In this document: positions 18,118 through 63,996 of the stretch, in pieces | How positions within the stretch are numbered: the first letter of the stretch is position 1 | Layout: each line of letters opens with the position of its first letter | Assembly: GCA_964502525.1 (NCBI GenBank) | Contig: CAZCXH010000002.1 | Coordinates: forward strand, 28,031-92,030 | DNA length: 64,000 bases | Source of the DNA: an uncultured Chitinophagaceae bacterium | GTDB lineage: Bacteria; Bacteroidota; Bacteroidia; Chitinophagales; CAIOSU01 | Reading direction: 5' to 3' | Program-made: the position numbers and the translations under genes | The notes under the pieces: model-generated | Seen by the model: only the letters and a program-made list of their open reading frames with translations | Database searches by the model: none | Told to the model about the DNA's origin: nothing

Positions 18118-18172
18118 ATCATCACCGAATTATCAAATTATCGAATCACCGAATCAGCAAATCACCGAATCA
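18118..18172. repeat. tandem 8-nt word array YAYCRAAT (reverse complement of ATTYGRTR), single arm, abutting the icd stop
   Basis: CACCGAAT TATCAAAT TATCGAAT CACCGAAT CAGCAAAT CACCGAAT. Confidence 0.8.
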
Positions 18173-49854: not shown

Positions 49855-50916
49855 TCAGTTGTGCATTTTTTCAGATTGAATTTGCGACAATGACCTGTAC
49901 CGCGCAGCAAGCGACAGCATCCACGATCCGAGAAAAATAAATCCCAGCACCGCTGAATAAAAAACAGGTCTCATTTTATCATCGAGGTCATAGGTTTTGA
50001 AAGCCGGATTGCCTCCGCTGCCGGGATGCAGCGTATCGGTGAGGCGCGGAACCACAAAGATGAACACAATAAAAATCACGAAAGCGAACACATTATAAAC
50101 AGCCGACACCTTGGCGCGCGCCCGGCTGTCGGTCAGCGAACCGCGCAGGATGAAATATGCGAAATAAATCAGCATGCCCAGAGCGGCTCCGTTCAGCTTG
50201 GGATCATTCACCCAGGGAGCGCCCCATGTGAAATTCGCCCATTGCATGCCGGTAAGGATTCCGAGCGCTCCAAAGAAAATGCCCACGCCCGCTGCCGTTG
50301 AGCCAATCAGATCATATTGCTGATTGCTCTTTGACAGAAAGAATATGCCGCACACAAACGAAACCAGCATCAGGAAAATCATCGTGAACCACATGGGCAC
50401 GTGAAAAAAGAGGTTGCGGATAGATTCGTACAAAATTTCACGGTAAGGAAAAGTCATTCCTGCAGCGGGAACAACTTCCAATATTGTGGTGCATCGCAAA
50501 CTGATACCCTTTACCGTGTCGGTTCTACCGATGGAGAAGGCGTTGTTGAGGAAAAAGGTGCCGTCCTTTTCATTATAAATAATCAGGCTGTAAAAATCCT
50601 GCTTGTTGTCGGTTCGCAGGTCGCCCGGGATGCCGAATTCAACATTGAGATGCTTTTCATTAATTACGGTCACGAAATTGTTGCAGATGAGGTTGTTCTC
50701 ATTTTTCAGCACCACGTTGAGCGACTGGTCGTCTTCGTTGAAGTGTGTGTTATAGCAAACGATGTCGAGCGAAATGGTTGCCCCACGGTCGGTATGAACA
50801 GGGTTAATGCTGACAATGCCGGGACCCAGCGGGATGAGCATCCCGGCTGTGAGCGCATAAACCAACAAAGGAATACTGAGGAATTTCCACCACCTCTGTC
50901 GGAGAAGACTCATCAT
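49855..50916 (-). CDS. ccmC: CcmC-like heme exporter / cytochrome c assembly protein with about 130-aa N-terminal periplasmic extension
   Basis: The Trp-rich motif WGAPWVNDPKL lies in a TM core. A beta-rich domain is inserted after the first TM helix. Confidence 0.8.
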   Translation of the reverse strand: MMSLLRQRWWKFLSIPLLVYALTAGMLIPLGPGIVSINPVHTDRGATISLDIVCYNTHFNEDDQSLNVVLKNENNLICNNFVTVINEKHLNVEFGIPGDLRTDNKQDFYSLIIYNEKDGTFFLNNAFSIGRTDTVKGISLRCTTILEVVPAAGMTFPYREILYESIRNLFFHVPMWFTMIFLMLVSFVCGIFFLSKSNQQYDLIGSTAAGVGIFFGALGILTGMQWANFTWGAPWVNDPKLNGAALGMLIYFAYFILRGSLTDSRARAKVSAVYNVFAFVIFIVFIFVVPRLTDTLHPGSGGNPAFKTYDLDDKMRPVFYSAVLGFIFLGSWMLSLAARYRSLSQIQSEKMHN

Positions 50917-50919
50917 GCG

Positions 50920-51594
50920 TTAATCGCGCCAAAGATAGGGAAATAAAATGTACGACAGCGAGACGAGCATCACGTCAAACGCGAGCAGAACGGCAATATC
51001 TTTTGCAACACCATTCAGTGTCGTATCAACGAAAAAGGCGCTGCCGGCAAATTTCATCAGCACAAGGATAAACACCAATATGACCGGCAGGCTGAGGATG
51101 GGCATCAGCGTGGCGTTGTTATCGGCTTTGGAGGCGATGGACGAGACAAGCGTTAGCAGGAACGAAAAGCCGCTGCCGCCCAGCGCCAGCGCGATGAGGA
51201 ACACCGCAAAGTTTTTCACCGGAGCGCCCAGCATCACAAAAAACACTGCCGATGCGATTACCGCTAAAACAAGCATCAGCAGCATGTTGTAAAGCATCTT
51301 CGCAAGGATGATGGATTGCGGGCGCACCAGCGTGTAATAATAAAGCAGCCGCTCGCGGCTCTCCTGCGTGAAGCTTTTGGCGATGGCATTCACCGCAGTG
51401 AAAACCATCGTGAGCCAAAACAGCACATTCCACCAACGGTAATTCACCATGCCCAGCGCCTGTTCGCTGTTGAGGATGGAGTAGATGACAAACACGGTAG
51501 CCACCACATAAAGCAGGATGCCCCCAACAGCATAGCGCATGCGCCATTCGAGCAATACATCCTTTTTCACCAGCAGCAGTATTTCGCGGAGCAT
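50920..51594 (-). CDS. ccmB: heme exporter protein CcmB-like ABC permease
   Basis: 224 aa with 6 TM helices and the CcmB-like N-terminus LLVKKDVLLEWR. Confidence 0.8.
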   Translation of the reverse strand: MLREILLLVKKDVLLEWRMRYAVGGILLYVVATVFVIYSILNSEQALGMVNYRWWNVLFWLTMVFTAVNAIAKSFTQESRERLLYYYTLVRPQSIILAKMLYNMLLMLVLAVIASAVFFVMLGAPVKNFAVFLIALALGGSGFSFLLTLVSSIASKADNNATLMPILSLPVILVFILVLMKFAGSAFFVDTTLNGVAKDIAVLLAFDVMLVSLSYILFPYLWRD

Positions 51595-51734
51595 GGGGGA
51601 AAGTTACAAAAGGGGATTTTGATTATGTCATATACTCTCATCTATTACAGAGCAGTAGCCTCCGGGTATTATTTATTTAAAGAACCAATTCGCCAGGATG
51701 AGCAGAACACTCCCCTCAGTCTTTTCCCCGGCTA

Positions 51735-51876
51735 TGGCGCAAGCGTCCGCGCTTGTGTCCATCATCCTGAAGCGTCCGCTTACCCAGCTCTGGCGCGGGC
51801 GTCCGCCCGTGTCCAGTTATTTACAAGCGTCCGCTTTTATTTGTCGCACCAGCGGGAAGCTGGCGCGAGGTGAGGG
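51735..51876 (+). repeat. 142-nt GC-rich multi-hairpin direct repeat, copy A (a further partial unit lies at 51889-51917)
   Basis: It aligns to 52572-52714 with about 6 differences, all substitutions being transitions. Confidence 0.9.
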
Positions 51877-51944
51877 GAACCCTTAAACTGGCGCAAGCGT
51901 GCGCGCTTGTGCCCATCCCTCCCTTGGGGGAGGTTGTAGGGTAA

Positions 51945-52110
51945 GTTTGAACCTTAAATCCGCAAACTATTTGAAATGACAGGTCTCCCGCTGATTTCGC
52001 TGATTCAAGCAGATGAATGTTAGAAAAGAATATTTTCTGCGGAAATCTGCGGTATCTGCAGGAAATTGATTGTTCATGGAATTTGAGTTTGCGGAATTTA
52101 GGTTGAAGCT
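51945..52110. repeat. imperfect about 32-nt inverted repeats enclosing CTGATTTCGCTGATT / CTGCGGAAATCTGCGG words
   Basis: GTTTGAACCTTAAATCCGCAAACT... pairs with ...AGTTTGCGGAATTTAGGTTGAAGC. Similar CTGCGRAAAATCAGCG words occur at 3502-3517 and 26572-26587. Confidence 0.6.
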
Positions 52111-52141
52111 AAAACCTCCGGAGTCGCGCAGAGGTTTTTTT
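52111..52141 (+). terminator. intrinsic-terminator-like hairpin with T-run
   Basis: AAAACCTC-CGGAGTCGCGCA-GAGGTTTT is followed by TTT. Confidence 0.4.
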
Positions 52142-52220
52142 GCGCATCACAAAACCGGAAGCGTTTTTGCTTGTGAAACTTTACTTCGTTGTAAGGGTTT
52201 GTTATCTTTGAAGGAAATCT

Positions 52221-52508
52221 TTGGACATGGTAGTTTCAGAAATCACCTTATTCAATGTATTAAGGGAAAAATTTGGGGAACAGACCGCCCAGAGTGTGAT
52301 TGAGGGCATCCGTTCATCCGTAAAAACGGAATTTGAAAATCAAAAAGACATTCTGGCGAGCAAAGAATTGGTGAAGGATGAAATTCACCGGCTGGAAATT
52401 AAAATCGAAAAATCAGATATACAGACATCCATTTACATTGTCGGTTTGATTCAATATCTCGCCATCCTTGGTTCGTTGGTTGCCTTGATTAAGTTTGTGA
52501 TGAATTAG
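52221..52508 (+). CDS. small coiled-coil protein with C-terminal TM anchor (DUF1640-like), hypothetical
   Basis: The 95-aa ORF (ATG at 52227) has a heptad-like charged middle and a hydrophobic tail IYIVGLIQYLAILGSLVALI. Confidence 0.45.
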   Translation: MDMVVSEITLFNVLREKFGEQTAQSVIEGIRSSVKTEFENQKDILASKELVKDEIHRLEIKIEKSDIQTSIYIVGLIQYLAILGSLVALIKFVMN

Positions 52509-52571
52509 ACCTTTTGTATCTTCCTGCAATCAGCCAAGGCCTGCAACTGCATATTCATCTACCCCTCAAAC

Positions 52572-52714
52572 TGGCGCAAGCGTCCGTGCTTGTGCCCATC
52601 ATCTTGAAGCGTCCGCTTACCCCAACTCTGGCGCGGGCGTCCGCCCGTGTCCAGCTATTTACAAGCGTCCGCTTTTATTTGTCGCACCAGCGGGAAGCTG
52701 GCGCGAGGTGAGGG
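52572..52714 (+). repeat. 143-nt GC-rich multi-hairpin direct repeat, copy B
   Basis: See copy A. It contains the GGCGCAAGCG-TCCG-YGCTTGTGYCC and GGCGCGGGC-GTCC-GCCCGTGTCC hairpins. Confidence 0.9.
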
Positions 52715-52840
52715 TTGAGGGGATTCTTCGCTACGCTCAGAATGACGCTTTGATTAAGCCAATAGATACCGCTGAACTTCTGGCAAGGTCGCTACCAAAC
52801 AGAGCCGCTGAAGAAACGAAGTCAGTACGCGCCAAAACCA

Positions 52841-52950
52841 ATTCGGTGATTCGGTAATTCGATGATTCGATAATGAAATACACCATCGAATTATCAAATT
52901 ATCGAATCATCACATCACCGAATCATCGAATCACCGAATTATCGAATTAC
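52841..52950. repeat. tandem-word hairpin, ATTCGRTR family (4 left units, 8 right units)
   Basis: The left arm is ATTCGGTG ATTCGGTA ATTCGATG ATTCGATA. The right arm has eight YAYCRAAT units and runs into the TACTTTTG box. Confidence 0.9.
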
Positions 52951-52955
52951 TTTTG
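52948..52955 (+). promoter_or_regulatory. -7 box TACTTTTG at the flavoprotein gene start
   Basis: Exact TAnnTTTG match. It overlaps the TTG at 52953, so the real start may be the GTG at 52962. Confidence 0.4.
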
Positions 52956-54233
52956 CGGAGCGTGCCTAAAAAAATCAAACAGGTAGCCATCATCGGGGGC
53001 GGTCCCTCGGGGTGCACCACGGCAATCAAGGTGGCGCGGCAGGGCAAGAAGGTCGCCATCTTCGACACCGGCAAGCGCCCCGACCTCATCGTGGGCGAGT
53101 CGCTCATCCCTGCCGTGATGCCCATCATCCGCGACCTGGGCGTGGAGGACGACATCAAGGGCTTCAGCGTGGTGAAGCCGGGCGCCTCGGTGTGGATGTC
53201 CGATGCCGAAGAGGCGACAGGACACTATACGCGGGCTGGCGGAAACTTGCCCACGTATGCCTACCAGGTGCCGCGCGGCCAGTTCGATGAGGTGCTGCTG
53301 AGGGCTGCCGAAAAAGAAGGCGTGAAGATTTTCAAGCTGCGCGCCAAAGTGGAGCGCGTGGGCAACACCGACCGCGTACGCCTTGCCGGTGAGACGCTCG
53401 CTGAAACCGAGGGCTTCTTCGATGGCGAGCCTGACTTCATCGTTGACTCCACCGGCAGAACGCGGATGTTCTCCAATCTGCTGGATGTAACCGCGAAAGA
53501 GGGTTCCCGCAAGGATTTTGCGCTCTTTGCCCATGTGAACCAGGCATCCATGAGCCCTGACGGGCATGTGCACATGCACCGCTGCGAGCACGGCTGGTCA
53601 TGGCGCATCCCGCTGCACAACCGCATTTCGGTGGGCGTGGTGGCAAGCCCGCAGCACCTGGAGAAATATGGCGCCACCATCGAGGAGCAGTATGACAATT
53701 TTATCAAACATGAAAAGGGCATCAGCAAATTCACCGCCAGTTCGGTGAGAGTGTCGAAAGTGATGAAGTATAATAATTATCAATTGATTTCCGACCGCAT
53801 GGCGGGCGACAACTGGGCGATGGCGGGTGATGCGGCAGGATTCATTGATCCGGTGTTTTCATCCGGTGTGTACCTTGCGATGAAAAGCGGTGTGGAGCTG
53901 GCAAGGGCGCTGGAAGCCGGCACTCCGGAAGCGATGATGCGCTATGAACGCATCTGGCGCAGGGAACTCAAGCTGTGGCAGCGCATGGTGAACACCTGGT
54001 ACAACGGCAGGCTGTTCACACTCTTCCGCGTGGGGCAGGATATGATGGGCAACTTTGTGGGTCGCGCCATCGAGCCGCACATGGCAAGCCAACTGATACA
54101 GATATTCACGGGTGGAGCCAACGACAGCGCCTACTGCCGCAACTTCCTGCGCTTCGTCACCGGCCCGCTGCTCGACTTCATGAACAACACGCGGATGACC
54201 AAGCGCCACCACAGCGAGCTGACGATTAACTGA
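52953..54233 (+). CDS. FAD-dependent oxidoreductase, flavin-halogenase-like (alternatively geranylgeranyl-reductase-like)
   Basis: The N-terminal dinucleotide motif IIGGGPSG and a WxWxIP-type motif GWSWRIPL are present. GC is much higher than in neighbouring genes. Confidence 0.8.
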   Translation: MRSVPKKIKQVAIIGGGPSGCTTAIKVARQGKKVAIFDTGKRPDLIVGESLIPAVMPIIRDLGVEDDIKGFSVVKPGASVWMSDAEEATGHYTRAGGNLPTYAYQVPRGQFDEVLLRAAEKEGVKIFKLRAKVERVGNTDRVRLAGETLAETEGFFDGEPDFIVDSTGRTRMFSNLLDVTAKEGSRKDFALFAHVNQASMSPDGHVHMHRCEHGWSWRIPLHNRISVGVVASPQHLEKYGATIEEQYDNFIKHEKGISKFTASSVRVSKVMKYNNYQLISDRMAGDNWAMAGDAAGFIDPVFSSGVYLAMKSGVELARALEAGTPEAMMRYERIWRRELKLWQRMVNTWYNGRLFTLFRVGQDMMGNFVGRAIEPHMASQLIQIFTGGANDSAYCRNFLRFVTGPLLDFMNNTRMTKRHHSELTIN

Positions 54234-54236
54234 GGA

Positions 54237-54938
54237 ATGTCACTAATTCGAATTTTTGCAATCATGATGCTGTGCTTTTCGTCATCGGCTTTGGCTTTGT
54301 GCCAAACGGGAGAGACGCTGAGCGGAGACAAATCAGCGGAAATCGCCAAACGGGAAATCAGCAAGTTGAAGAATGGTGTGCTGCTGGTTCGACTGATGAC
54401 AAAATCAAAATCCATAGATGCTTTGCGGGCGCGAGGCGACAACTACACCGCTGATAAGATTCAGCAAAAACAGAATGAGCTCAACACGAGGATAGTTGTG
54501 GCTTTCAGGATAGAGTTTGACTTTTGCCCGGTTTATTTTTTCTACAGCGACTACACGCAGCAAGTGAAAGACAAGCAGCTTGACAACGTGGTCTTCGTTA
54601 ACGACAGCCTCCAGCCGGATTCTTCCATCCGGTTAAACAATGAAAATTTCCTGATTGCCGAGTTCGGAACCGTGATGCAGGAATCGGGGAAACATCGCGA
54701 TGGATATTATTATTATAAAGATAAAGAAAGCGACAGCCTTGCCCGATCTGATTATTATTCAGCCCAATCCGAGTTTCCAGCTTTGGTCATCAGGAACGAC
54801 CGGTTCATCCCGATGCGCTTCTGGCTCTTTCCTTATTACGTCCGTACGCTTGCAGGCATTCGGAACGAGCAAAGCGCAGTGGGTATCATGAACAAAAAGT
54901 TGCTGAAGTTTTACGAAACCCACGGCAAGGGAGAATAG
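54237..54938 (+). CDS. secreted hypothetical protein
   Basis: It has a signal peptide (MLCFSSSALALC) and starts 3 nt after the upstream stop. No motif was recognised. Confidence 0.55.
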   Translation: MSLIRIFAIMMLCFSSSALALCQTGETLSGDKSAEIAKREISKLKNGVLLVRLMTKSKSIDALRARGDNYTADKIQQKQNELNTRIVVAFRIEFDFCPVYFFYSDYTQQVKDKQLDNVVFVNDSLQPDSSIRLNNENFLIAEFGTVMQESGKHRDGYYYYKDKESDSLARSDYYSAQSEFPALVIRNDRFIPMRFWLFPYYVRTLAGIRNEQSAVGIMNKKLLKFYETHGKGE

Positions 54939-54960
54939 CGTTTCCGCTATTTTTGCGCCC

Positions 54961-56463
54961 GTGCCTTCCATCAAAAAAATCCTTGTCGCCAATCGCGGTG
55001 AGATAGCGTTGCGCGTGATGCGCTCCGCCAGGGAAATGGGCATTAAAACTGTGGCAGTTTTTTCCGATGCCGACAGGACGATGCCCTTCGTGAGATTTGC
55101 GGACGAAGCGATTCACATCGGAGGTTCGTTGTCATCACAATCTTATCTGGTGGCGGAAAAAATAATTGATGCCGCGCGGAAAACAAAAGCTAACGCGATT
55201 CATCCCGGCTACGGCTTTCTTTCGGAAAACGAATCCTTTGCTGCGAAAGTCAAAAAAGCCGGAATCATTTTTGTTGGTCCGGATGCAAAGTCCATTGAGA
55301 TGATGGGAAACAAACTGGCGGCTAAAGAAATTGCAAAGAAGCTGAAGGTGCCGCTCGTTCCCGGAACGGAGAAAGCTATCGCCAATCCAAAACAGGCGGC
55401 AGATGAAGCGAAGAAAATCGGCTTTCCCGTTTTGCTGAAAGCGGCCGCTGGCGGTGGCGGAAAAGGGATGCGCGTGGTCAATAAAGAATCGGAACTCGCT
55501 CCTCAGATGGAAAGGGCGCAAAGCGAGGCGCTTTCGTCATTCGGAGATGATTCCGTTTTCATTGAGAAATATATTTCGTCTCCCCGTCATATTGAAATTC
55601 AGATTCTTGCCGACAGTCACGGCAATGTGGTTCACCTGTTCGAGCGCGAATGTTCCATCCAGCGCAGGCATCAGAAGCTAATCGAGGAAGCGCCATCGTC
55701 AGTTCTTACGGAAGAATTGAGAAATAAAATGGGCGAATGTGCCGTTGCAATAGCGAAAGCATGCAAGTACATGAGTGCCGGAACGGTGGAGTTTTTGATG
55801 GATGAAAAGCTCAACTTTTATTTCCTCGAAATGAACACGCGATTGCAGGTGGAACATCCCGTTACGGAAATGATAACGGGAATGGATTTGGTGAAAGAGC
55901 AGATTCGGGTAGCGCAAGGAGAAAAGTTGAGTGTCAAACAAAAAGACTTATCCATTCGCGGACACGCGATTGAATTAAGAGTGAATGCTGAAGATCCCGC
56001 AAATGATTTCCTCCCGAATGCAGGTGCGTTAAAGACCTATAAGAAGCCCTGCGGTCCTGGCATCAGAGTTGATGATGGTTATGAAGAAGGAATGGAAATC
56101 CCTATCTATTACGACCCCATGATTGCAAAACTCATTACGCACGGCAGTGACAGGGAAGAAGCCGTTCACCGCATGGTGAGGGCAATTGATGAATATGCGA
56201 TAACGGGGATGAAGACGACTCTTGGTTTCGGAAAATTCATCATGAACCATAAAGAATTCAGCAAAGGAAACCTCAGCACAAGATTTATCGAACAGCACTT
56301 CAACCCGGAAAGCCTTACATCTCATAAGGATGACGAGGAAGTCATCGCTTCCCTGATTGCCGCAACAATAATGGGCAACAACAACCAACCCAAATCCGTA
56401 AACCAAAAACAGGAACGGGTATCCTCCCGCTGGAAACAAAACCGTTTGAACCTTGAGCTTTAA
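54961..56463 (+). CDS. accC: biotin carboxylase (acetyl/acyl-CoA carboxylase BC subunit), no adjacent BCCP or carboxyltransferase
   Basis: ATP-grasp motifs KAAAGGGGKGMRVV and EMNTRLQVEHPVTE are present. The protein is 500 aa with a C-terminal extension. Confidence 0.9.
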   Translation: MPSIKKILVANRGEIALRVMRSAREMGIKTVAVFSDADRTMPFVRFADEAIHIGGSLSSQSYLVAEKIIDAARKTKANAIHPGYGFLSENESFAAKVKKAGIIFVGPDAKSIEMMGNKLAAKEIAKKLKVPLVPGTEKAIANPKQAADEAKKIGFPVLLKAAAGGGGKGMRVVNKESELAPQMERAQSEALSSFGDDSVFIEKYISSPRHIEIQILADSHGNVVHLFERECSIQRRHQKLIEEAPSSVLTEELRNKMGECAVAIAKACKYMSAGTVEFLMDEKLNFYFLEMNTRLQVEHPVTEMITGMDLVKEQIRVAQGEKLSVKQKDLSIRGHAIELRVNAEDPANDFLPNAGALKTYKKPCGPGIRVDDGYEEGMEIPIYYDPMIAKLITHGSDREEAVHRMVRAIDEYAITGMKTTLGFGKFIMNHKEFSKGNLSTRFIEQHFNPESLTSHKDDEEVIASLIAATIMGNNNQPKSVNQKQERVSSRWKQNRLNLEL

Positions 56464-57196
56464 AGATCATTTTTCAACCCAGTCAGCCGACTACGCCAGA
56501 TACAGGCCGCGCTATCCGAAAGCACTTTACGATTTCCTGCTCGCACATGCGAAAGAGAAAAAAATTGCATGGGATGTGGCAACGGGCAACGGGCAGGTAG
56601 CCGTTGAATTAGCGGAACATTTCGAAAAAGTAATTGCAACTGATGCGAGCGAAAGTCAGATCAGCCATGCGTCTTCACATCCAAAAGTTATTTACAAGGT
56701 GAGCATGGCTGAAAACTGCGGTCTTCCGGATGGAATTGCAGACCTGATTACCGTTGGACAGGCACTGCATTGGTTTGACTTTGAGAAATTTTTCAGCGAA
56801 GTAAAACGAACGGCTAAGCCGGGATGTTTTTTTGCCGCGTGGGGATATAAGCTGCACCATATTTCTCCCGAGGTTGACAAGGTGATCAGCCGCTTTTATG
56901 AGGAGATTGTCGGTCCCTATTGGCCGCGAGAGAGAACCTACGTTGACAATGCCTACAACAACATACCACTGCCGCTTATCCCTGTTGCAACACCTCCGTT
57001 TGAACTTCAGTGGAGATGGAACATGAATGAATTGCTGGGGTATCTCAGCACATGGTCAAGCACTCAGCTTTATCTCAAGTATCAGGGCCGTAATCCGCTG
57101 GAACTGATTGAAGGCGATTTGCAGCAGGCATGGGGCAATCCGCTGGAAGATTTGGAAGTAGTGTGGCCCATTTTCATGAAAGCAGGGCACTTGTAA
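56453..57196 (+). CDS. class I SAM-dependent methyltransferase
   Basis: Motif I is WDVATGNGQ and post-I is ATDASESQ. The TTG start overlaps the accC end by 11 nt. Confidence 0.8.
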   Translation: MSFKDHFSTQSADYARYRPRYPKALYDFLLAHAKEKKIAWDVATGNGQVAVELAEHFEKVIATDASESQISHASSHPKVIYKVSMAENCGLPDGIADLITVGQALHWFDFEKFFSEVKRTAKPGCFFAAWGYKLHHISPEVDKVISRFYEEIVGPYWPRERTYVDNAYNNIPLPLIPVATPPFELQWRWNMNELLGYLSTWSSTQLYLKYQGRNPLELIEGDLQQAWGNPLEDLEVVWPIFMKAGHL

Positions 57197-57251
57197 GTTA
57201 TCCCCTCCGCATCGGCAGCAGCAAGGCATTGAGGGGCTGTCATTCAAATTG

Positions 57252-57259
57252 TAACTTTG
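57252..57259 (+). promoter_or_regulatory. -7 box TAACTTTG immediately upstream of eboA
   Basis: Exact TAnnTTTG match, with 6 nt before the ATG at 57266. Confidence 0.5.
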
Positions 57260-58168
57260 CCCACCATGCATCAGGTGAATCTTCAGGCTGCGCAAAGCTT
57301 TTTCCATTCCGTTCTGTCTCGCAATTCCACCGGAGATTCGCTAACATGGTTGACGGAAAAGATAAATAGGTCTGGAAAGAAATTTTCAGAAAAGGATTTT
57401 TACCTCACCTTCAGCCTGCTCCCGCGCTATTTCAGCAAAGACCAGTTGAAATTCTCTGAAGAGCCTGAGAAGACCGGGGCGCAAATAAGGCAGGGCTTTA
57501 ACCCTTCGGACTTCACCATTGCACAGACAGCAAGAGTGTTGCTTCTGCTGATGATTCCAACGGAGGATGAAAATCTCTTTTTAAAAATCCTGAATAATCT
57601 TTTCACCACAGCGGAAGTAAATGAGCTGGTTGCGCTTTATTCAGCGCTTCCGCTTTTATCTTATCCTGAATCGCTGAAGTCCCGGACGGCTGAAGGCATA
57701 AGAAGCAACATGGCGGTAGTGTTCGATGCCGTTGCTTTAAACAATCCTTATCCGGCAGATTTTTTGGATGATGACGCCTTCAACCAGATGGTGTTGAAAG
57801 CCGTATTCATCGAGCGCTCATTGGACAAAATTTATAAGCTCGATTCAAGAGCCAATAAAGATCTCGCGCGCATGTTGTCTGATTATGCCCACGAGCGTTG
57901 GGCGGCATCGCGTTATGTGACACCGGAATTATGGCGACCGATCGGTCCCTTTATTGATGACAGCTTGCTGAAAGACATTGAACGCCTGCTTGAACAAGGA
58001 AGCGAACTCGATAAACAGGCGGCTGCGTTAGCCGTTCAAAGCAGTAAATCGCTGAAAGCAGCAGAATTGGTTCCTGAGCCTTTAAAATTAAAAGCAGAAA
58101 AAAAAGAATTTGACTGGCACAGTATTTCCAAGAAATGGTTCGCTGAAAGGAATGCGGTGATTCGGTGA
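57257..58168 (+). CDS. eboA: EboA-like protein (ebo cluster gene 1)
   Basis: The position, size and motifs (EGIRSNMAVVFDAVALNNPYP, NQMVLKAVF, LSDYAHERWAA) fit what I remember of EboA. The likely start is the ATG at 57266. Confidence 0.7.
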   Translation: MPTMHQVNLQAAQSFFHSVLSRNSTGDSLTWLTEKINRSGKKFSEKDFYLTFSLLPRYFSKDQLKFSEEPEKTGAQIRQGFNPSDFTIAQTARVLLLLMIPTEDENLFLKILNNLFTTAEVNELVALYSALPLLSYPESLKSRTAEGIRSNMAVVFDAVALNNPYPADFLDDDAFNQMVLKAVFIERSLDKIYKLDSRANKDLARMLSDYAHERWAASRYVTPELWRPIGPFIDDSLLKDIERLLEQGSELDKQAAALAVQSSKSLKAAELVPEPLKLKAEKKEFDWHSISKKWFAERNAVIR

Positions 58169-58241
58169 TTTGATAATTATCAATAAATACAAAACTCCAT
58201 TTCCATTATCGAATCATCAAATTATCGAATTATCGAATTAC
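58154..58241. repeat. tandem-word hairpin, ATTCGRTR family, between eboA and eboB
   Basis: The left arm GCGGTGATTCGGTGATTTGATAATTATC covers the last eboA codons and the stop. The right arm is TTATCGAATCATCAAATTATCGAATTATCGAATTAC. Confidence 0.85.
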
Positions 58242-58257
58242 ACTAAAAATAAACATC

Positions 58258-59172
58258 ATGACGAACTCCAGGATACTATTCATTGACCCGCACATCCACA
58301 TGTCTTCACGAACGACTGACGATTACGAAGCGATGTCCGCGGCAGGTGTTGTTGCGGTGATAGAGCCTTCCTTCTGGCAGGGACAGCCGCGCACGGAAGT
58401 CGGCACGTTCAAAGATTATTTCAGCAGCCTCATAGGATGGGAACGTTTTCGCGCGAGCCAATTTGGAATTAAGCACTATTGCACGATTGGTTTGAATTCA
58501 AAGGAAGCTAATAATGAAGAGCTGGCTGAACAGGTGATTGAATTATTGCCTTTGTTCGCAGCCAAAGAAGGCGTGGTAGCCATTGGCGAAATCGGCTATG
58601 ACGACCAGACCAGGGCTGAAGATAAATATTTCCGAATTCAACTGGAACTGGCAAAAGAACTCAACCTGCCCGTTCAAATTCACACTCCTCACCGCGACAA
58701 AAAGCGCGGAACAACCCGCAGCATGGATGTGTGTGAAGAGCACGGGCTTGATCCTAAAAAAGTGATTATAGATCATAATAATGAAGAAACGATGCGGGAG
58801 GTTTTGGACAGGGGTTATTGGGCTGCTTTCACCATCTATCCTAAAACAAAAATGGGCAATGAGCGCATGGCGGAAGTTGTCAGGAAATTCGGGTATGAGC
58901 GCATCATCGTTGACAGCTCGGCAGATTGGGGTGTGAGCGATCCCCTTGCTGTCCCGAAAACCGCCAACCTGATGTTGAAAAGCGGAGTTGCTGAAGAAAG
59001 TGTAAGGATGACGTGTTACACAAATGCACTCACCGCCTACGGACAGAGCGGGCAAATGAGTGAATCAGACTGGCTCCAGCCAAAAGACATAGATCAAACA
59101 CAACTGTTTTCCGGAAATTCCGTTTTAAGGGGGCAAGCACCAATAATCGCCAAATCAGATATTATAAAATAG
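58258..59172 (+). CDS. eboB: TatD-related metal-dependent hydrolase (EboB)
   Basis: FIDPHIHM, AIGEIGYD and QIHTPH are metal-ligand motifs of the amidohydrolase/TatD fold. Confidence 0.8.
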   Translation: MTNSRILFIDPHIHMSSRTTDDYEAMSAAGVVAVIEPSFWQGQPRTEVGTFKDYFSSLIGWERFRASQFGIKHYCTIGLNSKEANNEELAEQVIELLPLFAAKEGVVAIGEIGYDDQTRAEDKYFRIQLELAKELNLPVQIHTPHRDKKRGTTRSMDVCEEHGLDPKKVIIDHNNEETMREVLDRGYWAAFTIYPKTKMGNERMAEVVRKFGYERIIVDSSADWGVSDPLAVPKTANLMLKSGVAEESVRMTCYTNALTAYGQSGQMSESDWLQPKDIDQTQLFSGNSVLRGQAPIIAKSDIIK

Positions 59173-59212
59173 CAAGTTGTCAGTGAGCAGTTCGCCATCA
59201 TGAGCCAGTAAA

Positions 59213-60160
59213 ATGCCCGATTCCCCGACCAAAGCCCGTCATTCACTATCGGCAAGGTTTTCAGCCTACCTGCAATTAACACGTCCCGCAAATATTCTTA
59301 CCGCAATCGCGGATATCATGGCCGGTTTTGCCGTTTCAGGAGCTATTATCGAAATAGTTGATACCGGAAAAGGATGGTTTTGTATTCCCGAACTTCGCAA
59401 CCTTGCGTTGCTGATTGTCTCTACAACCGGGTTGTATGGAGGAGGTGTGGTGCTGAATGATTTTTTTGATGCAGCGCTGGATTCAACAGAAAGACCGGAA
59501 AGACCGATACCCAGCGGAAAAGCCTCCAGGGCTGGGGCATTCATCTTGGGAATGCTCCTTATTTCTGTTGGCATACAAGCGGCTTCATTTGTTTCATTTC
59601 CCAGCGCGATAATAGCCATTACCATCGCGTCACTTGCGGTATTATATGATGCATGGGGTAAGCATCAGACTTATTTTGGTCCGATTAACATGGGTCTATG
59701 TCGTGGCGGGAATTTGCTGCTTGGCGTGAGCGCATTAACAGCGGCAATTTTTGATTTCTGGTTTATTGCATTTATTCCTGTTCTCTACATCGCAGCGGTA
59801 ACCACCGTCAGCCGGGGAGAGGTGCATGGCAATCATGGCAACTCGCTTCGGAAAGCAGGATGGATGTATTCGGTTGTCATCTTCTTAATTGCTGGTTTAG
59901 CATTTCATCCTGATTTTCATCTGCGTCCTGCCCTACCCTACCTGGTGCTATTTGGATGGATGATATTCGGTCCATTGCGCACCGCTCAAATCACCGGTCA
60001 GCCAAAAGATATTGGCAAGGCGGTGAAATTTGGCGTGCTCTCGCTGATATTGATGGATGCCGCGATTGCCGCGGGTTTTGCCGGATGGGATTACGCGCTT
60101 TTAATTGTTTGCCTGCTGCCCCTGTCGCTATTGCTGTCAAAATTGTTTGCGGTAACATAG
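59213..60160 (+). CDS. eboC: UbiA-family prenyltransferase (EboC)
   Basis: It has 8-9 TM helices and the first Asp-rich motif NDFFDAALDSTERPERPIPSG. Confidence 0.85.
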   Translation: MPDSPTKARHSLSARFSAYLQLTRPANILTAIADIMAGFAVSGAIIEIVDTGKGWFCIPELRNLALLIVSTTGLYGGGVVLNDFFDAALDSTERPERPIPSGKASRAGAFILGMLLISVGIQAASFVSFPSAIIAITIASLAVLYDAWGKHQTYFGPINMGLCRGGNLLLGVSALTAAIFDFWFIAFIPVLYIAAVTTVSRGEVHGNHGNSLRKAGWMYSVVIFLIAGLAFHPDFHLRPALPYLVLFGWMIFGPLRTAQITGQPKDIGKAVKFGVLSLILMDAAIAAGFAGWDYALLIVCLLPLSLLLSKLFAVT

Positions 60161-60247
60161 CCAACGCAGGCTAATCAAGGATTTTCACGCAACTCTTTCG
60201 CGCAAAGTCCGTAAATTCTTAGCGAATTTGTATATCTCAGCCTATTT

Positions 60248-61432
60248 ATGCGTACTATCCGGCAATCATTTTCCGTCAAGTTCAGCTACCCGGTGCATTT
60301 CACCGAAAGTGTTTTTTCAAGTGAAAACACCGTATTTGCAAACCTGCTCTCGGACGATGGCAATCCGGGACCAAAGAAAACGTTGTTCGTTATTGACGAT
60401 GGAGTGAATTTCCATCACCGAAGATTGATCGAAAACATAAAAGCTTATGCAAATGCTCGCAAAAATGTAATCGAGATCTGCGGTGACCTTTTAGTGGTTC
60501 CGGGTGGAGAAGCATGCAAAAATGATATCAGCGCTTTCGATGAAATTATCGCGTCAATTAACCATCACGGGATTGACCGTCATTCCTACGTTATAGGTGT
60601 TGGAGGTGGTGCAGTGCTTGATCTTGTCGGCTATGCTGCAGCCGTTGCGCACAGAGGTATCCGCCACATCAGAATTCCTACAACCGTATTGTCGCAAAAC
60701 GATTCCGGGGTTGGCGTGAAGAATGGCATCAACGCTTTCGGGAAAAAAAATTTTCTCGGAACATTTGCTCCGCCTGTTGGAGTCATCAATGACCATACTT
60801 TCCTGACAACGCTCGACATCCGCGACTGGCGTTCGGGAATTGCCGAGGCAATCAAGGTTGGGCTGATAAAAGATGCCGACTTTTTTCTTTATATCAAAAT
60901 GAACGTGGAAAAGCTGATTGCAAGGGATTCCACCGTAATGCAGGAGCTGATTTATCGCTGCGCAAAGCTGCACCTTGAGCACATTTCCGGTGGCGATCCA
61001 TTTGAAATGGGCTCGTCACGCCCGCTGGATTTCGGACACTGGGCTTCGCACAAGCTGGAAGGATTAACGCAATATGATATCCGCCATGGTGAAGCGGTCG
61101 CTGTTGGAATTTGCCTCGACTCCATATACTCGCATCTTTCCGGATTGCTATCCAAAATTGAATTGGAAGAAATTATTCATTTGATCCGAAAAATCGGCTT
61201 TCAGCTCTATTTTCCGGAATTGTCACAGAACCTTGAAAACCCAAACGATCCAGACAGTTTACTTTCCGGATTAAACGAATTCCGCGAACATCTTGGCGGC
61301 AAACTCACGGTGATGTTGCTGAAAAGGATAGGTCAGGGAGTGGAAGTGAACGAAATGGATTTTGACATGATTAGGAAATCGGTCAATATCCTGAAATCCT
61401 ACCAATCACAGGTTGAATTGCGCAACGCATAA
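60248..61432 (+). CDS. eboD: 3-dehydroquinate synthase-like sugar phosphate cyclase (EboD)
   Basis: GVGGGAVLDLVGYAAA, IPTTVLSQNDSGVGVKNGIN and the metal-ligand His region HWASHKLE are present. Confidence 0.85.
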   Translation: MRTIRQSFSVKFSYPVHFTESVFSSENTVFANLLSDDGNPGPKKTLFVIDDGVNFHHRRLIENIKAYANARKNVIEICGDLLVVPGGEACKNDISAFDEIIASINHHGIDRHSYVIGVGGGAVLDLVGYAAAVAHRGIRHIRIPTTVLSQNDSGVGVKNGINAFGKKNFLGTFAPPVGVINDHTFLTTLDIRDWRSGIAEAIKVGLIKDADFFLYIKMNVEKLIARDSTVMQELIYRCAKLHLEHISGGDPFEMGSSRPLDFGHWASHKLEGLTQYDIRHGEAVAVGICLDSIYSHLSGLLSKIELEEIIHLIRKIGFQLYFPELSQNLENPNDPDSLLSGLNEFREHLGGKLTVMLLKRIGQGVEVNEMDFDMIRKSVNILKSYQSQVELRNA

Positions 61433-61459
61433 ACCCGATAGTCACATATCTTTGGAGAA

Positions 61460-62620
61460 ATGGATGTTGCGGGCAAATATCACCTCACTTATTGCACAAA
61501 CGTACACGCGGGAGAAGGTTGGGAAGAAATGTACCGGCAATTAAAAAATCACCTTCCTTCTGTAAAGCAAGCAGTTTCGCCTAAAGAGAATTTCGGAGTC
61601 GGACTGTACTTATCTGACAAAGCCAGTCGTGAAATTCTGGTTGGAAATAAGCTGCCGGAATTTAAAGAATGGCTCAACAAAGAAGGGTTGTATGTTTTCA
61701 CCATGAACGGGTTTCCGTATGGCAATTTCCACGGTGACATTGTTAAGGATAACGTTTACAAGCCCGATTGGACAACCCGTGAGCGTGTGGAATATACCAA
61801 ACGCCTGTTTCACATACTCGCTGAACTTTTACCAGAAGGTGTAGAAGGAGGAATTTCAACATCTCCCATATCTTACAAGCATTGGTTCGCAGATAGCGAG
61901 CAAAAAGAAAAAGTTTTTGCCACAGCATTCAAGCATTTTGTAGAAATAGCTTGGTTTCTGAATGACCTGTGCGAAAAAACTCAGATGAACCTGCATCTTG
62001 ACATTGAACCGGAACCGGATTGCCTGCTTGAAAATTCAGACGAAGCCGTCAATTTTTTTGAAAGGCTCCATGCCTGTGAAAAAAGAAATGACATTATCAG
62101 CAAATTCCTGGCTCTGTGTTTTGATGTCTGTCATTTTTCCGTTGAGTTTGAGAAACCGGAATCTGCGCTCGCTAAATTGATTTCACAAGGAATCAGGATC
62201 GGAAAGGTTCAACTCAGTTCCGCCCTGAAATTCTCCCTCAACGGCAAAAATGAAAATGACGTCAAAGAGATTTTGCAATTGGATGAGCCGAGATATCTTC
62301 ACCAAACGGTGAAAAGTAAAGTGTCTGGAGAAATTGAAAAATTCCGGGATATTTCCACTGTGGTCACCGGTAATGGAGCTTATGATGCTGAATGGCGCAC
62401 ACATTTTCATGTGCCTTTATTTCTAAACAGTTATGGCAATCTTCAATCAACACAGGATGATGTGGTGGCGGCATTGAGATTTTTAAAGAAAGAAGAAATA
62501 ACAAAACATCTTGAAGTTGAAACATATACGTGGGATGTGCTTCCTGCCGGATTAAAGGGAGATCTGACTGTTTCCATCATTCGCGAATTGGAATGGGTTA
62601 AAAAGGCTCTTGGTGAATGA
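61460..62620 (+). CDS. eboE: xylose-isomerase-like TIM-barrel protein (EboE)
   Basis: The N-terminal YCTNVHAGEGW, the HLDIEPEPDC and CFDVCHFSVEF barrel motifs, and the position in the cluster all fit. Confidence 0.75.
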   Translation: MDVAGKYHLTYCTNVHAGEGWEEMYRQLKNHLPSVKQAVSPKENFGVGLYLSDKASREILVGNKLPEFKEWLNKEGLYVFTMNGFPYGNFHGDIVKDNVYKPDWTTRERVEYTKRLFHILAELLPEGVEGGISTSPISYKHWFADSEQKEKVFATAFKHFVEIAWFLNDLCEKTQMNLHLDIEPEPDCLLENSDEAVNFFERLHACEKRNDIISKFLALCFDVCHFSVEFEKPESALAKLISQGIRIGKVQLSSALKFSLNGKNENDVKEILQLDEPRYLHQTVKSKVSGEIEKFRDISTVVTGNGAYDAEWRTHFHVPLFLNSYGNLQSTQDDVVAALRFLKKEEITKHLEVETYTWDVLPAGLKGDLTVSIIRELEWVKKALGE

Positions 62621-63996
62621 AAAAAACCGCTGTATTGAATGTTGTTGGATTAACTCCTTCGCTCATCGGAGAACACACTCCTTTTTTGAATAAATGGTCG
62701 AAGCTGGGAAAAACAGTTTCCATCGTTCCGCCATTGCCTGCCGTAACCTGCACTTCTCAATCAACATTTCTGACCGGCACCGCGCCTTCCGTTCATGGCA
62801 TCGTTGGCAACGGCTGGTATTTCAGGGAAGAGTGCGAAGTAAAATTCTGGAGGCAGTCCAACCATTTGGTGCAAGGCAAGAAAATCTGGGAAATTGCAAA
62901 AGAAAAGAACCCGGAGTTCACCTGCGCCAACTTATTCTGGTGGTATAACATGTATTCGGGCGTGGATTATTCGGTCACTCCGCGTCCACAGTACCTCGCT
63001 GATGGAAGAAAGTTTCCCGACATCTATGCTTACCCCGCAGGATTACGCGACACCTTGCAGCAGAAGCTTGGAACATTTCCGCTATTTGATTTCTGGGGAC
63101 CGCGAACTACCATTCGTTCGAGCCGGTGGATTGCGGATTCCGCAAAAATGATTGAAAACCTTTACCACCCCACTCTAACGCTGATTTATCTGCCTCATCT
63201 GGACTACAACCTGCAGCGGTACGGAATTGATTTCTCCAAAATCACCAAAGACTTGCAAGAAATTGATTCCGTATGCGAAGATTTGATTTCTTTTTATGAA
63301 ACGCGGGACACTCAGGTAATCGTGCTTTCGGAATATGGAATCACCAATGTCAGCAAGCCAATATCGCTTAACAGGATTTTCCGCGAAAATGGATTGCTTG
63401 CTGTTCGTGAAGAGCGCGGTTTGGAACTGCTGGACGCTGGCGCCAGCAAGGCTTTTGCCGTTGCAGACCACCAATTAGCGCATGTATATGTGAATGATTT
63501 ATCAGAATTAAACCGTGTAAAAAATATTTTGGAGAAAACACAGGGTATTGAGTTGGTTCTTGATGAATTTGGTAAGAGAAAATATAATTTGAATCATGCC
63601 AGATCTGGCGAGTTAACAGCCATTGCGGACAAAGATTCCTGGTTTACCTACTACTATTGGCTGGAAGACAACAAGGCGCCTGATTTTGCAAGAACCGTGG
63701 ACATTCATAAAAAACCAGGCTACGATCCGGTGGAATTATTTATCAATCCGGAACTTGGTTTTATTCCTCTCAGAGTCGGAATTAAGTTATTGAAAAAACA
63801 GGTAGGGTTCAGAATATTGATGGATTTGATTCCGCTTAAGCCGGAATTGGTCCGCGGCTCCCACGGGCGGCTTCCGGAAAGCGAAGGTGATGGACCCTTG
63901 TTTATCAGCAAGGATAAAGCGCTCGTGCCGGACAAGAAAATTGCCGGGCATGAAGTATTCCGCTTGCTTCTCACGCACCTTGTGTTAGCGGGTTAA
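62617..63996 (+). CDS. eboF: alkaline-phosphatase-superfamily nucleotide pyrophosphatase/phosphodiesterase (EboF)
   Basis: VVGLTP...PAVTCTSQSTFLTGTAPSVHGIVGNGWY carries a nucleophile Thr/Ser motif, and SHG lies near the C-terminus. It overlaps eboE by 4 nt. Confidence 0.8.
   Translation: MKKTAVLNVVGLTPSLIGEHTPFLNKWSKLGKTVSIVPPLPAVTCTSQSTFLTGTAPSVHGIVGNGWYFREECEVKFWRQSNHLVQGKKIWEIAKEKNPEFTCANLFWWYNMYSGVDYSVTPRPQYLADGRKFPDIYAYPAGLRDTLQQKLGTFPLFDFWGPRTTIRSSRWIADSAKMIENLYHPTLTLIYLPHLDYNLQRYGIDFSKITKDLQEIDSVCEDLISFYETRDTQVIVLSEYGITNVSKPISLNRIFRENGLLAVREERGLELLDAGASKAFAVADHQLAHVYVNDLSELNRVKNILEKTQGIELVLDEFGKRKYNLNHARSGELTAIADKDSWFTYYYWLEDNKAPDFARTVDIHKKPGYDPVELFINPELGFIPLRVGIKLLKKQVGFRILMDLIPLKPELVRGSHGRLPESEGDGPLFISKDKALVPDKKIAGHEVFRLLLTHLVLAG

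Follow-up and report, generated by a model that had tools for sequence, protein, structure and literature searches.

The DNA analyzed here, referred to as the window, is a 64,000-nucleotide (64-kb) stretch of an uncultured Chitinophagaceae bacterium (GenBank assembly GCA_964502525.1, contig CAZCXH010000002.1, positions 28,031 to 92,030 of the forward strand). One gene in this window encodes a member of the flavin-dependent halogenase family. It is an intact, relocated member of an uncharacterized halogenase subfamily and heads a gene block containing eboA-eboF in one small lineage. Because its relatives in other lineages sit in aryl-polyene or carrier protein clusters and never beside ebo genes, it is regarded as a relocated ordinary enzyme and not as a regular ebo tailoring gene. 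The best overall explanation, to which we assign a probability of about 0.6, is a pigment-type halogenase-family enzyme that was relocated or acquired and that would act on a substrate made elsewhere, not on the ebo product. The assignment to the phenol/pyrrole "variant B" type, similar to PltA, Mpy16, CndH, and CmlS, is part of this explanation. The gene and the motifs of its product are as follows.

52962..54233, + strand: halogenase-family gene, 423 residues from the GTG at 52962; the open reading frame (ORF) opens with a TTG at 52953
Protein residues 15-20, GGGPSG; residues 48-53, GESLIP; K75 in KPGASVW; residues 214-221, GWSWRIPL; residues 292-305, GDAAGFIDPVFSSG

The GTG at 52962 is the probable start, in agreement with the N termini of homologs and with a database protein (P0001) that is identical to the window protein. 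Both motifs on which the first-pass annotation had based its halogenase proposal, IIGGGPSG (residues 13-20) and GWSWRIPL (residues 214-221), were found in the translation. The Pfam model PF04820 (Trp_halogenase) matched with 104.9 bits at a gathering cut-off of 21. Scores against NCBIfam equivalog models were below the cut-offs, with 132 versus 900 bits for CmlS, 121.6 versus 240 bits for QhpG, and 98 versus 400 bits for LodB. A profile of 24 homologs was used for a search of the PDB, in which 3nix, ChlB4, FasV, Mpy16, PltA, CmlS, CndH, and RadH were the best matches, with E values of 1e-48 to 1e-35. In the same search, the archaeal DGGGPL reductase 3oz2 was found with an E value of 2e-12 and QhpG with 1.4e-7. 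An AlphaFold2 model of the protein had a predicted local distance difference test (pLDDT) score of 79 and a predicted TM-score (pTM) of 0.82. When this model was compared with the PDB using Foldseek, ranks 1-39 were all flavin-dependent halogenases or 3nix (E values of 1e-25 to 1e-19).

Residue conservation was measured over 44 relatives from six or more phyla. G15, G17, E49 of the GESLIP motif, W215, W217, P220, and the GD...DP..S.G motif are kept in all 44, and K75 and I219 in 43 relatives each. The profile alignment matches K75 with the K-x-G-A lysine found in ChlB4, 3nix, and FasV. Its equivalence to the catalytic lysine of the halogenases, which we take to be K79 in PrnA, K71 in CmlS, and K76 in CndH, is well supported by sequence comparison, though not proven. 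E49 aligns with residue 64 of the CmlS chain, which corresponds to native E44 after a 20-residue tag. The region of the PrnA E346-type glutamate of tryptophan halogenases does not align with the window protein. K75 and E49 are thus candidates for the catalytic lysine and glutamate that the first-pass annotation had asked for. The assignment to the halogenase family was supported by the lysine, the GES glutamate, the WxWxIP signature, and the halogenases among the sequence and fold neighbors. A scan of part of the window ORFs revealed no flavin reductase.

A search of a large protein database returned one identical sequence, one at 88% identity, four at 65-68%, and then hundreds at ~50-54%. The named proteins in the last group belong to Ferruginibacter or Chitinophagaceae, and the database annotates the family only as "NAD(P)/FAD-dependent oxidoreductase." Exact-sequence look-ups of P0001 and of hyp233, the protein encoded directly downstream of the halogenase-family gene, yielded nothing on record. 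Further relatives at 31-49% identity were found on genome contigs of Verrucomicrobiota, Myxococcota, and Lysobacterales; these came from an alignment-based scan, and a single-sequence scan gave none. The ORFs neighboring the homologs were clustered over 87 loci, 53 of which were at least 15 kb long. The recurrent neighbors were an MMPL exporter (24 loci), a phytoene-desaturase-like amine oxidase (21), an AMP-ligase (20), a family 2 glycosyltransferase (GT2) with DUF2062 (18), a short-chain dehydrogenase/reductase (11), a condensation-like protein (9), a ketosynthase (KS; 9), and a partner resembling a chain-length factor (CLF; 8). With the short-chain dehydrogenase/reductase excluded, at least one aryl-polyene-type neighbor was present at 47 of the 87 loci and at 34 of the 53 longer ones. 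This neighbor gene set is that of xanthomonadin/flexirubin-type aryl-polyene clusters.

The sister clade at 65-68% identity has a different context. Its members share one conserved acyl carrier protein (ACP) cassette across four loci, which is apparently undescribed and suggests a halogenated, possibly sulfated, carrier-bound aromatic acid as the product. The cassette loci (L001 18-8555, L002 829-6721, L171 3031-11203, and L172 178-5119) lie on low-GC contigs, probably of Bacteroidota. Genes for a sulfotransferase, an AMP-ligase, a PF12831 FAD oxidoreductase, a 429-residue condensation-like protein, and the ACP face the halogenase homolog, which is followed by an amine oxidase gene. The sulfotransferase is absent in L002, and L172 ends short of its position. 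The AMP-ligase is present in L001 and L171, and its place lies beyond the contig ends in L002 and L172. Three other homolog loci (L017, L018, and L039) group with the Verrucomicrobiota in the tree, and their metagenome-assembled genome (MAG) records carry implausible labels (Nitrosomonas, Bifidobacterium, Bifidobacteriaceae), which are probably binning or labeling errors in the public records.

The surroundings of the gene in the window differ from both contexts. No aryl-polyene-type genes were detected in the 64 kb by tblastn (E ≤ 1e-4). The other window genes are those of an ordinary chromosome, including trigger factor, RelA/SpoT, isocitrate dehydrogenase, arginine genes, MurB, HolA, and GDH, and the window also encodes CcmBC and proteins with type IX secretion system (T9SS) tails. 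Immediately upstream of the gene, the following features were mapped.

49855..51594, - strand: ccmC-like and ccmB-like cytochrome c maturation genes, divergent from the block; conserved left anchor of the synteny comparison
51595..54236, no strand: candidate insertion segment of 2.64 kb, from the ccmB start to the hyp233 start
51735..51876, + strand: left copy of a direct repeat of ~142 nt, carrying four GCGTCCGC words
51889-51939: third, partial copy of the direct repeat
52221..52508, + strand: orf95, 95 residues with a hydrophobic C terminus, between the direct repeats
52572..52714, + strand: right copy of the direct repeat (~142 nt), 94-98% identical to the left copy and likewise with four GCGTCCGC words
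52825..52965, + strand: hairpin of 141 nt with ~14 copies of the 8-nt unit TCGAATYA in inverted arrays

The 2.64-kb segment contains the direct repeats, orf95, the hairpin, and the halogenase-family gene. In a JGI contig (L091), ccmC (77% identity) and ccmB (81%) are followed after 72 bp by hyp233 (61%), and the homology between this contig and the window ends at 51612 and restarts at 54355 inside hyp233. Because L091 has a 72-bp spacer in its place, the segment appears to be an insertion. In L085, the locus of the 88% homolog (80% identical at the nucleotide level), homology to the window starts and stops at the halogenase ORF, and the flanking genes, encoding Maf and a T9SS protein, are not related to those of the window. 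The evidence from L091 and L085, combined with that from L088, a Logan contig described below, supports the relocation or acquisition of a single gene into the ccmB/hyp233 spacer, as judged from synteny. No mobility genes (integrase, transposase) were found in the 2.6 kb, only the repeats and orf95; a tRNA scan was not run. The ~142-nt repeats enclose ~700 bp with orf95 and are absent elsewhere in the window. With the DNA between them, they may be what is left of a small mobile element, and orf95 may or may not be a real gene. Pfam searches at E ≤ 1 gave nothing credible for either orf95 or hyp233.

The hairpin at 52825-52965 has a calculated RNA folding energy of -53 kcal/mol (z score of -7.2), and the base of its stem pairs with the GTG start region. 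Rfam searches of 51400-54400 yielded only chance-level miRNA and snoRNA matches to the hairpin, far under the gathering scores. The first-pass annotation had described a hairpin and repeat-rich DNA as bounding the gene upstream. Both are present, but the role of the hairpin as an island boundary mark was rejected, as this element recurs in two further intergenic regions, near 18.1 kb and 58.2 kb. In total, 19 matches to the TCGAATYA unit were counted in the window, compared with 1.2 expected. They form elements at 18124-18162, between the ORF at 16799-18058 and the icd-like gene; at 52841-52947, upstream of the halogenase-family gene; and at 58160-58238, upstream of eboB. L088 keeps the element both upstream of its halogenase gene and upstream of eboB; the two stretches concerned are L088 1-22 and L088 5252-5343. 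The element may be REP-like, regulatory, or a terminator. The Bacteroidota -7 promoter consensus is TAnnTTTG. The sequence TACTTTTG at 52948-52955 fits this consensus, with 6 nt separating it from the GTG. Were it to serve as a promoter, the mRNA would have almost no leader, and the hairpin would be left upstream of the transcribed region.

The genes that follow the halogenase-family gene form the rest of the block.

54237..54938, + strand: hyp233, 233 residues, signal-peptide-like N terminus and invariant FCPVYFF; starts 3 nt after the halogenase stop codon
54961..56463, + strand: stand-alone biotin carboxylase, AccC-type, 500 residues
56453..57196, + strand: S-adenosylmethionine (SAM)-dependent methyltransferase, overlapping accC by 11 nt
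57257..63996, + strand: eboA-eboF, encoding EboA, TatD-like EboB, UbiA-like EboC, DHQS-like EboD, TIM-barrel EboE, and phosphodiesterase-type EboF

L088 carries the same block, and its halogenase protein is 95% identical to that of the window. Identities are 85% for hyp233, 89% for AccC, 88% for the methyltransferase, and 73-93% for EboA-F. The L088 halogenase gene is also a GC outlier, with 0.584 compared with 0.42-0.50 in its neighbors. Between the two halogenase genes, 0.032 nonsynonymous (dN) and 0.399 synonymous (dS) substitutions per site were determined (dN/dS of 0.08), and the gene is under strong purifying selection. Because L088 shares the block and dS is 0.399, the gene was present before the split of the two lineages or was exchanged soon after it.

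In a neighbor-joining tree the window and L088 proteins group with L085. The ACP-cassette clade is the sister of this group, and both fall within a Chitinophagaceae/Bacteroidota clade. The host RelA is 77-84% similar to that of uncultured Chitinophagales MAGs. Since the gene nests in the Bacteroidota clade and the host is a member of the Chitinophagales, any transfer would have occurred within the phylum. The phylogeny proposed as a check by the first-pass annotation thus places the gene inside Bacteroidota/Chitinophagales, and neither incongruence with the taxon tree nor foreign nearest relatives were found. The closest relatives are less GC-rich than the window gene (0.529 for L085 and 0.45-0.48 for the ACP-cassette clade). 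A high-GC foreign donor, for example from the Actinomycetota or Pseudomonadota, was rejected, as such relatives are only 31-49% identical and branch outside the Bacteroidota clade. The horizontal acquisition proposed earlier was supported as an insertion, on the evidence of L091 and L085; a foreign high-GC donor was not supported, with the nearest relatives being lower-GC Bacteroidota.

For the composition of the host, the 64-kb window with 57 called ORFs served as the sample. Whole-window GC is 47.8%. The halogenase-family ORF has a GC of 0.592 and a GC at third codon positions (GC3) of 0.775, both the maxima among the 57 ORFs. The ORF means are 0.483 (standard deviation (sd) of 0.032) for GC and 0.570 (sd of 0.074) for GC3, which gives z scores of ~3.4 and ~2.8, respectively. 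Measured over 150-nt steps, GC reaches 0.62-0.65 across the 5' half of the gene and 0.47-0.62 across its 3' half, compared with 0.39 immediately upstream and 0.43-0.52 downstream. With this drop on both sides, the GC edges match the limits of the ORF. Three antisense ORFs (214, 157, and 117 residues) lie within the gene. The gene is thus the GC-rich outlier with long spurious antisense ORFs that had been reported at the outset; a reading of its composition as a simple foreign signature was not supported.

The GC expected from the amino acid composition was computed with the pooled codon usage of the window. It is 0.521, compared with a window mean of 0.487, so that 0.034 of the excess of 0.11, approximately one-third, is compositional. 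The synonymous GC excess amounts to +0.071; no other window ORF exceeds +0.053, and the value is the end of a continuum in which the genes for a 7TM-HD protein, HolA, RelA/SpoT, MurB, and CcmB have values of +0.040 to +0.053. Codon preferences correlate with those of the native high-GC3 genes (r = 0.925), the same G/C-ending codons (GTC, GGG, and CGG) are avoided, and the codon log-likelihood resembles that of host genes. Members of the family also exceed their flanks in GC at most other low-GC Bacteroidota loci, by ~0.02 to ~0.08; the +0.114 in the window is the largest difference. Substitutions were polarized with L085 as the outgroup. The ratio of changes from G/C (S) to A/T (W) to the reverse was 19:20 for the window lineage and 44:38 when both lineages were counted. 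The 72:28 split in favor of S>W expected for a gene relaxing toward host GC3 was rejected (p = 0.0003-0.025), and no amelioration toward host composition was found in the polarized substitutions. The high GC3 is, by these sequence comparisons, maintained at equilibrium and not decaying. The composition is therefore not simply a fading foreign signature, given the balanced substitutions and the host-like codon choices. At the other extreme, eboA-F are the low-GC3 outliers of the window (GC3 of 0.40-0.51, z scores of -2.8 to -6.9 relative to the amino acid expectation), and their codon likelihood is atypical for the window. EboE is far more diverged from its L088 counterpart than the neighboring genes are (73% amino acid identity, dS of 1.69).

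EboA-F were recognized by NCBIfam. The eboA-F genes have been tied to the algal morphogen thallusin, the route to which leads from a cyclitol and aspartate to a trihydroxyquinoline that is farnesylated by EboC, followed by an oxidative rearrangement step without an assigned enzyme (bioRxiv 10.64898/2026.05.21.724671). No halogenase, flavoprotein, methyltransferase, or carboxylase is mentioned in the ebo literature consulted (PMC5133447, bioRxiv 10.64898/2026.05.21.724671). Of all loci compared, only the window and its close relative L088 have the halogenase gene colocalized with ebo genes. At the 89 other homolog loci (L001-L087, L171, and L172), none of the ebo genes, accC, the methyltransferase gene, or hyp233 occurs within 10 kb. 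The co-occurrence check suggested by the first-pass annotation thus returned only the window and L088, and its proposal that the gene tailors the ebo product received no comparative support. The hyp233 family comprises 26 protein database matches and 139 metagenome loci; those with Pfam-called neighbors include T9SS-tailed proteins, which points to a Bacteroidota family. Elsewhere in loci L089-L170, apart from L091 with its ccm genes, hyp233 was not found beside ebo, ccm, or halogenase genes. The accC and methyltransferase genes are translationally coupled, lie 60 nt upstream of eboA, and are kept in L088 (89% and 88% identity). They may represent lineage-specific tailoring or simply adjacent genes.

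Several observations weigh against the explanation preferred here. No aryl-polyene, ACP, or AMP-ligase gene is present anywhere in the 64-kb window, so that the source of the proposed trans substrate is not seen. Halogenase-like folds include non-halogenating enzymes, and 3nix is itself unannotated. In gapless pairwise alignments K75 is set one residue off the catalytic lysine of CndH, CmlS, and Mpy16, so that the case for its equivalence is built on the K-x-G motif and on the profile alignment. The polarity of the insertion depends on one outgroup locus, L091, in whose lineage a loss is possible. The dS of the halogenase gene (0.40) is lower than that of its neighbors (0.53-1.69), which could reflect a transfer between the window and L088 lineages after their split. 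Finally, the 3-nt gap to hyp233, the lack of a terminator, and the conservation in L088 are equally expected of a recruited ebo tailoring gene.

In such a recruitment, the enzyme would be cotranscribed with the ebo genes and would halogenate the hydroxyquinoline, saccharoquinoline, or thallusin scaffold to give a halogenated thallusin-type signal. The genes are on the same strand, no terminator-like site was found between the halogenase gene and hyp233, and the arrangement is kept in L088 along with 95% identity and a dN/dS of 0.08. A scan of 51500-58400 for sigma-70 promoters and terminators gave counts within ~1-1.6 sd of shuffled controls, Bacteroidota promoters not being covered. The Ebo product is built on an electron-rich trihydroxyquinoline (bioRxiv 10.64898/2026.05.21.724671), which a phenol-type halogenase could plausibly accept, and the absence of aryl-polyene or ACP genes within 64 kb fits as well. 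However, ebo genes lie within 10 kb at 0 of the 89 other homolog loci, the conserved partners of the family are aryl-polyene or ACP-cassette genes, and the ebo papers describe no halogenase, flavoprotein, or halogenated product. L091 suggests that hyp233 can stand beside ccmB without a halogenase gene, and the closest structural relatives use carrier-bound substrates; a carrier protein is absent here. We consider this recruitment unlikely. A fuller version appears slightly less likely still, in which a pigment-type halogenase was captured by the ebo operon and cotranscribed and halogenates the trihydroxyquinoline/saccharoquinoline core to yield a halogenated thallusin-class signal, with accC and the methyltransferase as further tailoring genes and the high GC3 due to expression selection on the first gene. 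Beyond this lineage the ebo-tailoring idea is unsupported, and the comparative evidence, all of it genomic, argues against a general role. Recruitment to the operon in this lineage only would fit the 3-nt spacing, the absence of any terminator-like site, and the arrangement shared with L088.

As improbable as that fuller version is an ancestral resident gene, which would always have stood at the junction and been lost in L091, its high GC being wholly intrinsic or selected without any horizontal event. The equilibrium of GC3, the codon preferences shared with native high-GC3 genes (r = 0.925), the host-typical log-likelihood, the higher GC of the family relative to its flanks in most low-GC hosts, and the nesting in the Bacteroidota would all agree with residence. 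Against it stand the unrelated flanks on both sides of the 88% homolog in L085, the different conserved cassette of the sister clade with its GC of 0.45-0.48, the extra 2.6 kb full of repeats, and the GC excess of +0.114, the largest among the loci examined. A monooxygenase with a halogenase fold, i.e. a hydroxylase or oxidase like QhpG or LodB that perhaps performs the rearrangement from saccharoquinoline to thallusin, is somewhat more doubtful again. In its favor, that oxidative step has no assigned enzyme, databases annotate the family only as an oxidoreductase, and the protein has sub-threshold scores against the NCBIfam models for QhpG (121.6 bits) and for LodB (98 bits). Nevertheless, these scores are far under the cut-offs of 240 and 400, and in the PDB search QhpG reached only 1.4e-7 compared with 1e-48 for halogenases. 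The WxWxIP signature and the lysine, which separate halogenases from monooxygenases, are kept in 43-44 of the 44 relatives, and the gene is absent from ebo clusters elsewhere, yet all thallusin producers need the rearrangement step. The alternative named in the first-pass annotation, a geranylgeranyl-reductase-type enzyme acting on the prenyl chain attached by EboC, was rejected and is effectively refuted. A UbiA prenyltransferase is encoded nearby, and matches to the geranylgeranyl reductase family TIGR02032 (104.5 bits) and to 3oz2 (2e-12) were obtained. The former, however, is under the cut-off of 158.8, halogenases match 36 orders of magnitude better, the top Foldseek matches are all halogenases or 3nix, and the motif reads W-S-W-R-I-P and not Y-x-W-x-F-P as in the reductases.

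For the relocated pigment-type enzyme favored here, a mechanism can be proposed by analogy with the family. FADH2, O2, and halide would yield hypohalous acid, which K75, aided by the GES glutamate E49, would direct to an electron-rich aromatic substrate, the WxWxIP wall presumably holding the substrate away from the flavin. The usual home of the subfamily is aryl-polyene clusters of the flexirubin or xanthomonadin type and the small ACP/AMP-ligase cassette. In the window lineage a single copy was probably relocated, or acquired from another member of the Bacteroidota; direction and donor are inferred. It would have entered the interval between ccmB and hyp233 as part of 2.6 kb of DNA with repeats, before the split from L088. 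The gene now heads the hyp233-accC-methyltransferase-eboABCDEF run, with which it is probably cotranscribed. Its high GC would have three sources, namely the amino acid composition, a tendency that the family shows in low-GC hosts, and a strong, maintained preference for G/C-ending codons. Rather than the ebo product, the substrate would most likely be an aryl pigment or a carrier-bound aromatic acid whose synthesis is encoded in another part of the genome.

The gene adds an uncharacterized, well-conserved subfamily of flavin-dependent halogenases, found here in an unusual detached position, with hundreds of members in Chitinophagaceae and relatives in Verrucomicrobiota, Myxococcota, and Lysobacterales. 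A functional link to ebo, if there is one, would point to halogenated variants of thallusin-type algal morphogens and offer a way into the tailoring chemistry of ebo. The gene also calls for methodological caution. A sharp GC/GC3 outlier coinciding with a synteny gap resembles textbook horizontal transfer, and composition alone misreads the history of this gene, because the closest relatives belong to the same phylum and are less GC-rich, and because GC3 is maintained.

Among known systems, the fold is shared with the carrier-dependent and phenolic halogenases PltA (5dbj), Mpy16 (5buk), Bmp2 (5bva), ChlB4 (7fco), FasV (8zop), CndH (3e1t), CmlS (3i3l), and RadH (8gu0), with TM-scores of 0.66-0.75. 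Common motifs are GxGxxG, GESLxP, the K-x-G lysine, WxWxIP, and GDAxxFxDPxxSxG, and the halogenases of the 65-68% sister clade stand head-to-head with an ACP gene, like carrier-dependent halogenases. However, identity to these enzymes is only 22-29%, and the CmlS equivalog score is 132 versus 900 bits. The window protein has its own helical C terminus of ~70 residues (355-426, pLDDT of ~60-68) that matches nothing solved, and unlike the carrier-dependent halogenases its gene has no carrier protein or partner genes near it in the window. The best PDB sequence match is 3nix from Cytophaga hutchinsonii, a structural genomics "flavoprotein/dehydrogenase" (E value of 8e-48 over residues 1-355). It also gives the top TM-scores (0.75-0.79), likewise comes from the Bacteroidota, and is of comparable length, although only ~24% identical; it adds no information on function. 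Xanthomonadin and arcuflavin aryl-polyene clusters hold a halogenase gene beside a KS/CLF pair and a glycosyltransferase (PMC3691225, PMC3949708). Relatives in Lysobacterales, Verrucomicrobiota, Myxococcota, and Chitinophagaceae adjoin a partner set of this type, consisting of a KS/CLF pair, an AMP-ligase, a GT2 protein resembling dolichyl-phosphate mannose synthase, an MMPL exporter, and an acyltransferase. The likeness to these clusters runs via the neighbors of the relatives; the window copy is only 31-36% identical to the Lysobacterales members, and the partners are absent within 64 kb. With respect to the ebo cluster, the halogenase-family gene is not one of the six defining ebo genes and is absent from the ebo context at other homolog loci, but in the window and in L088 it is located immediately upstream, on the same strand, of a complete eboABCDEF.

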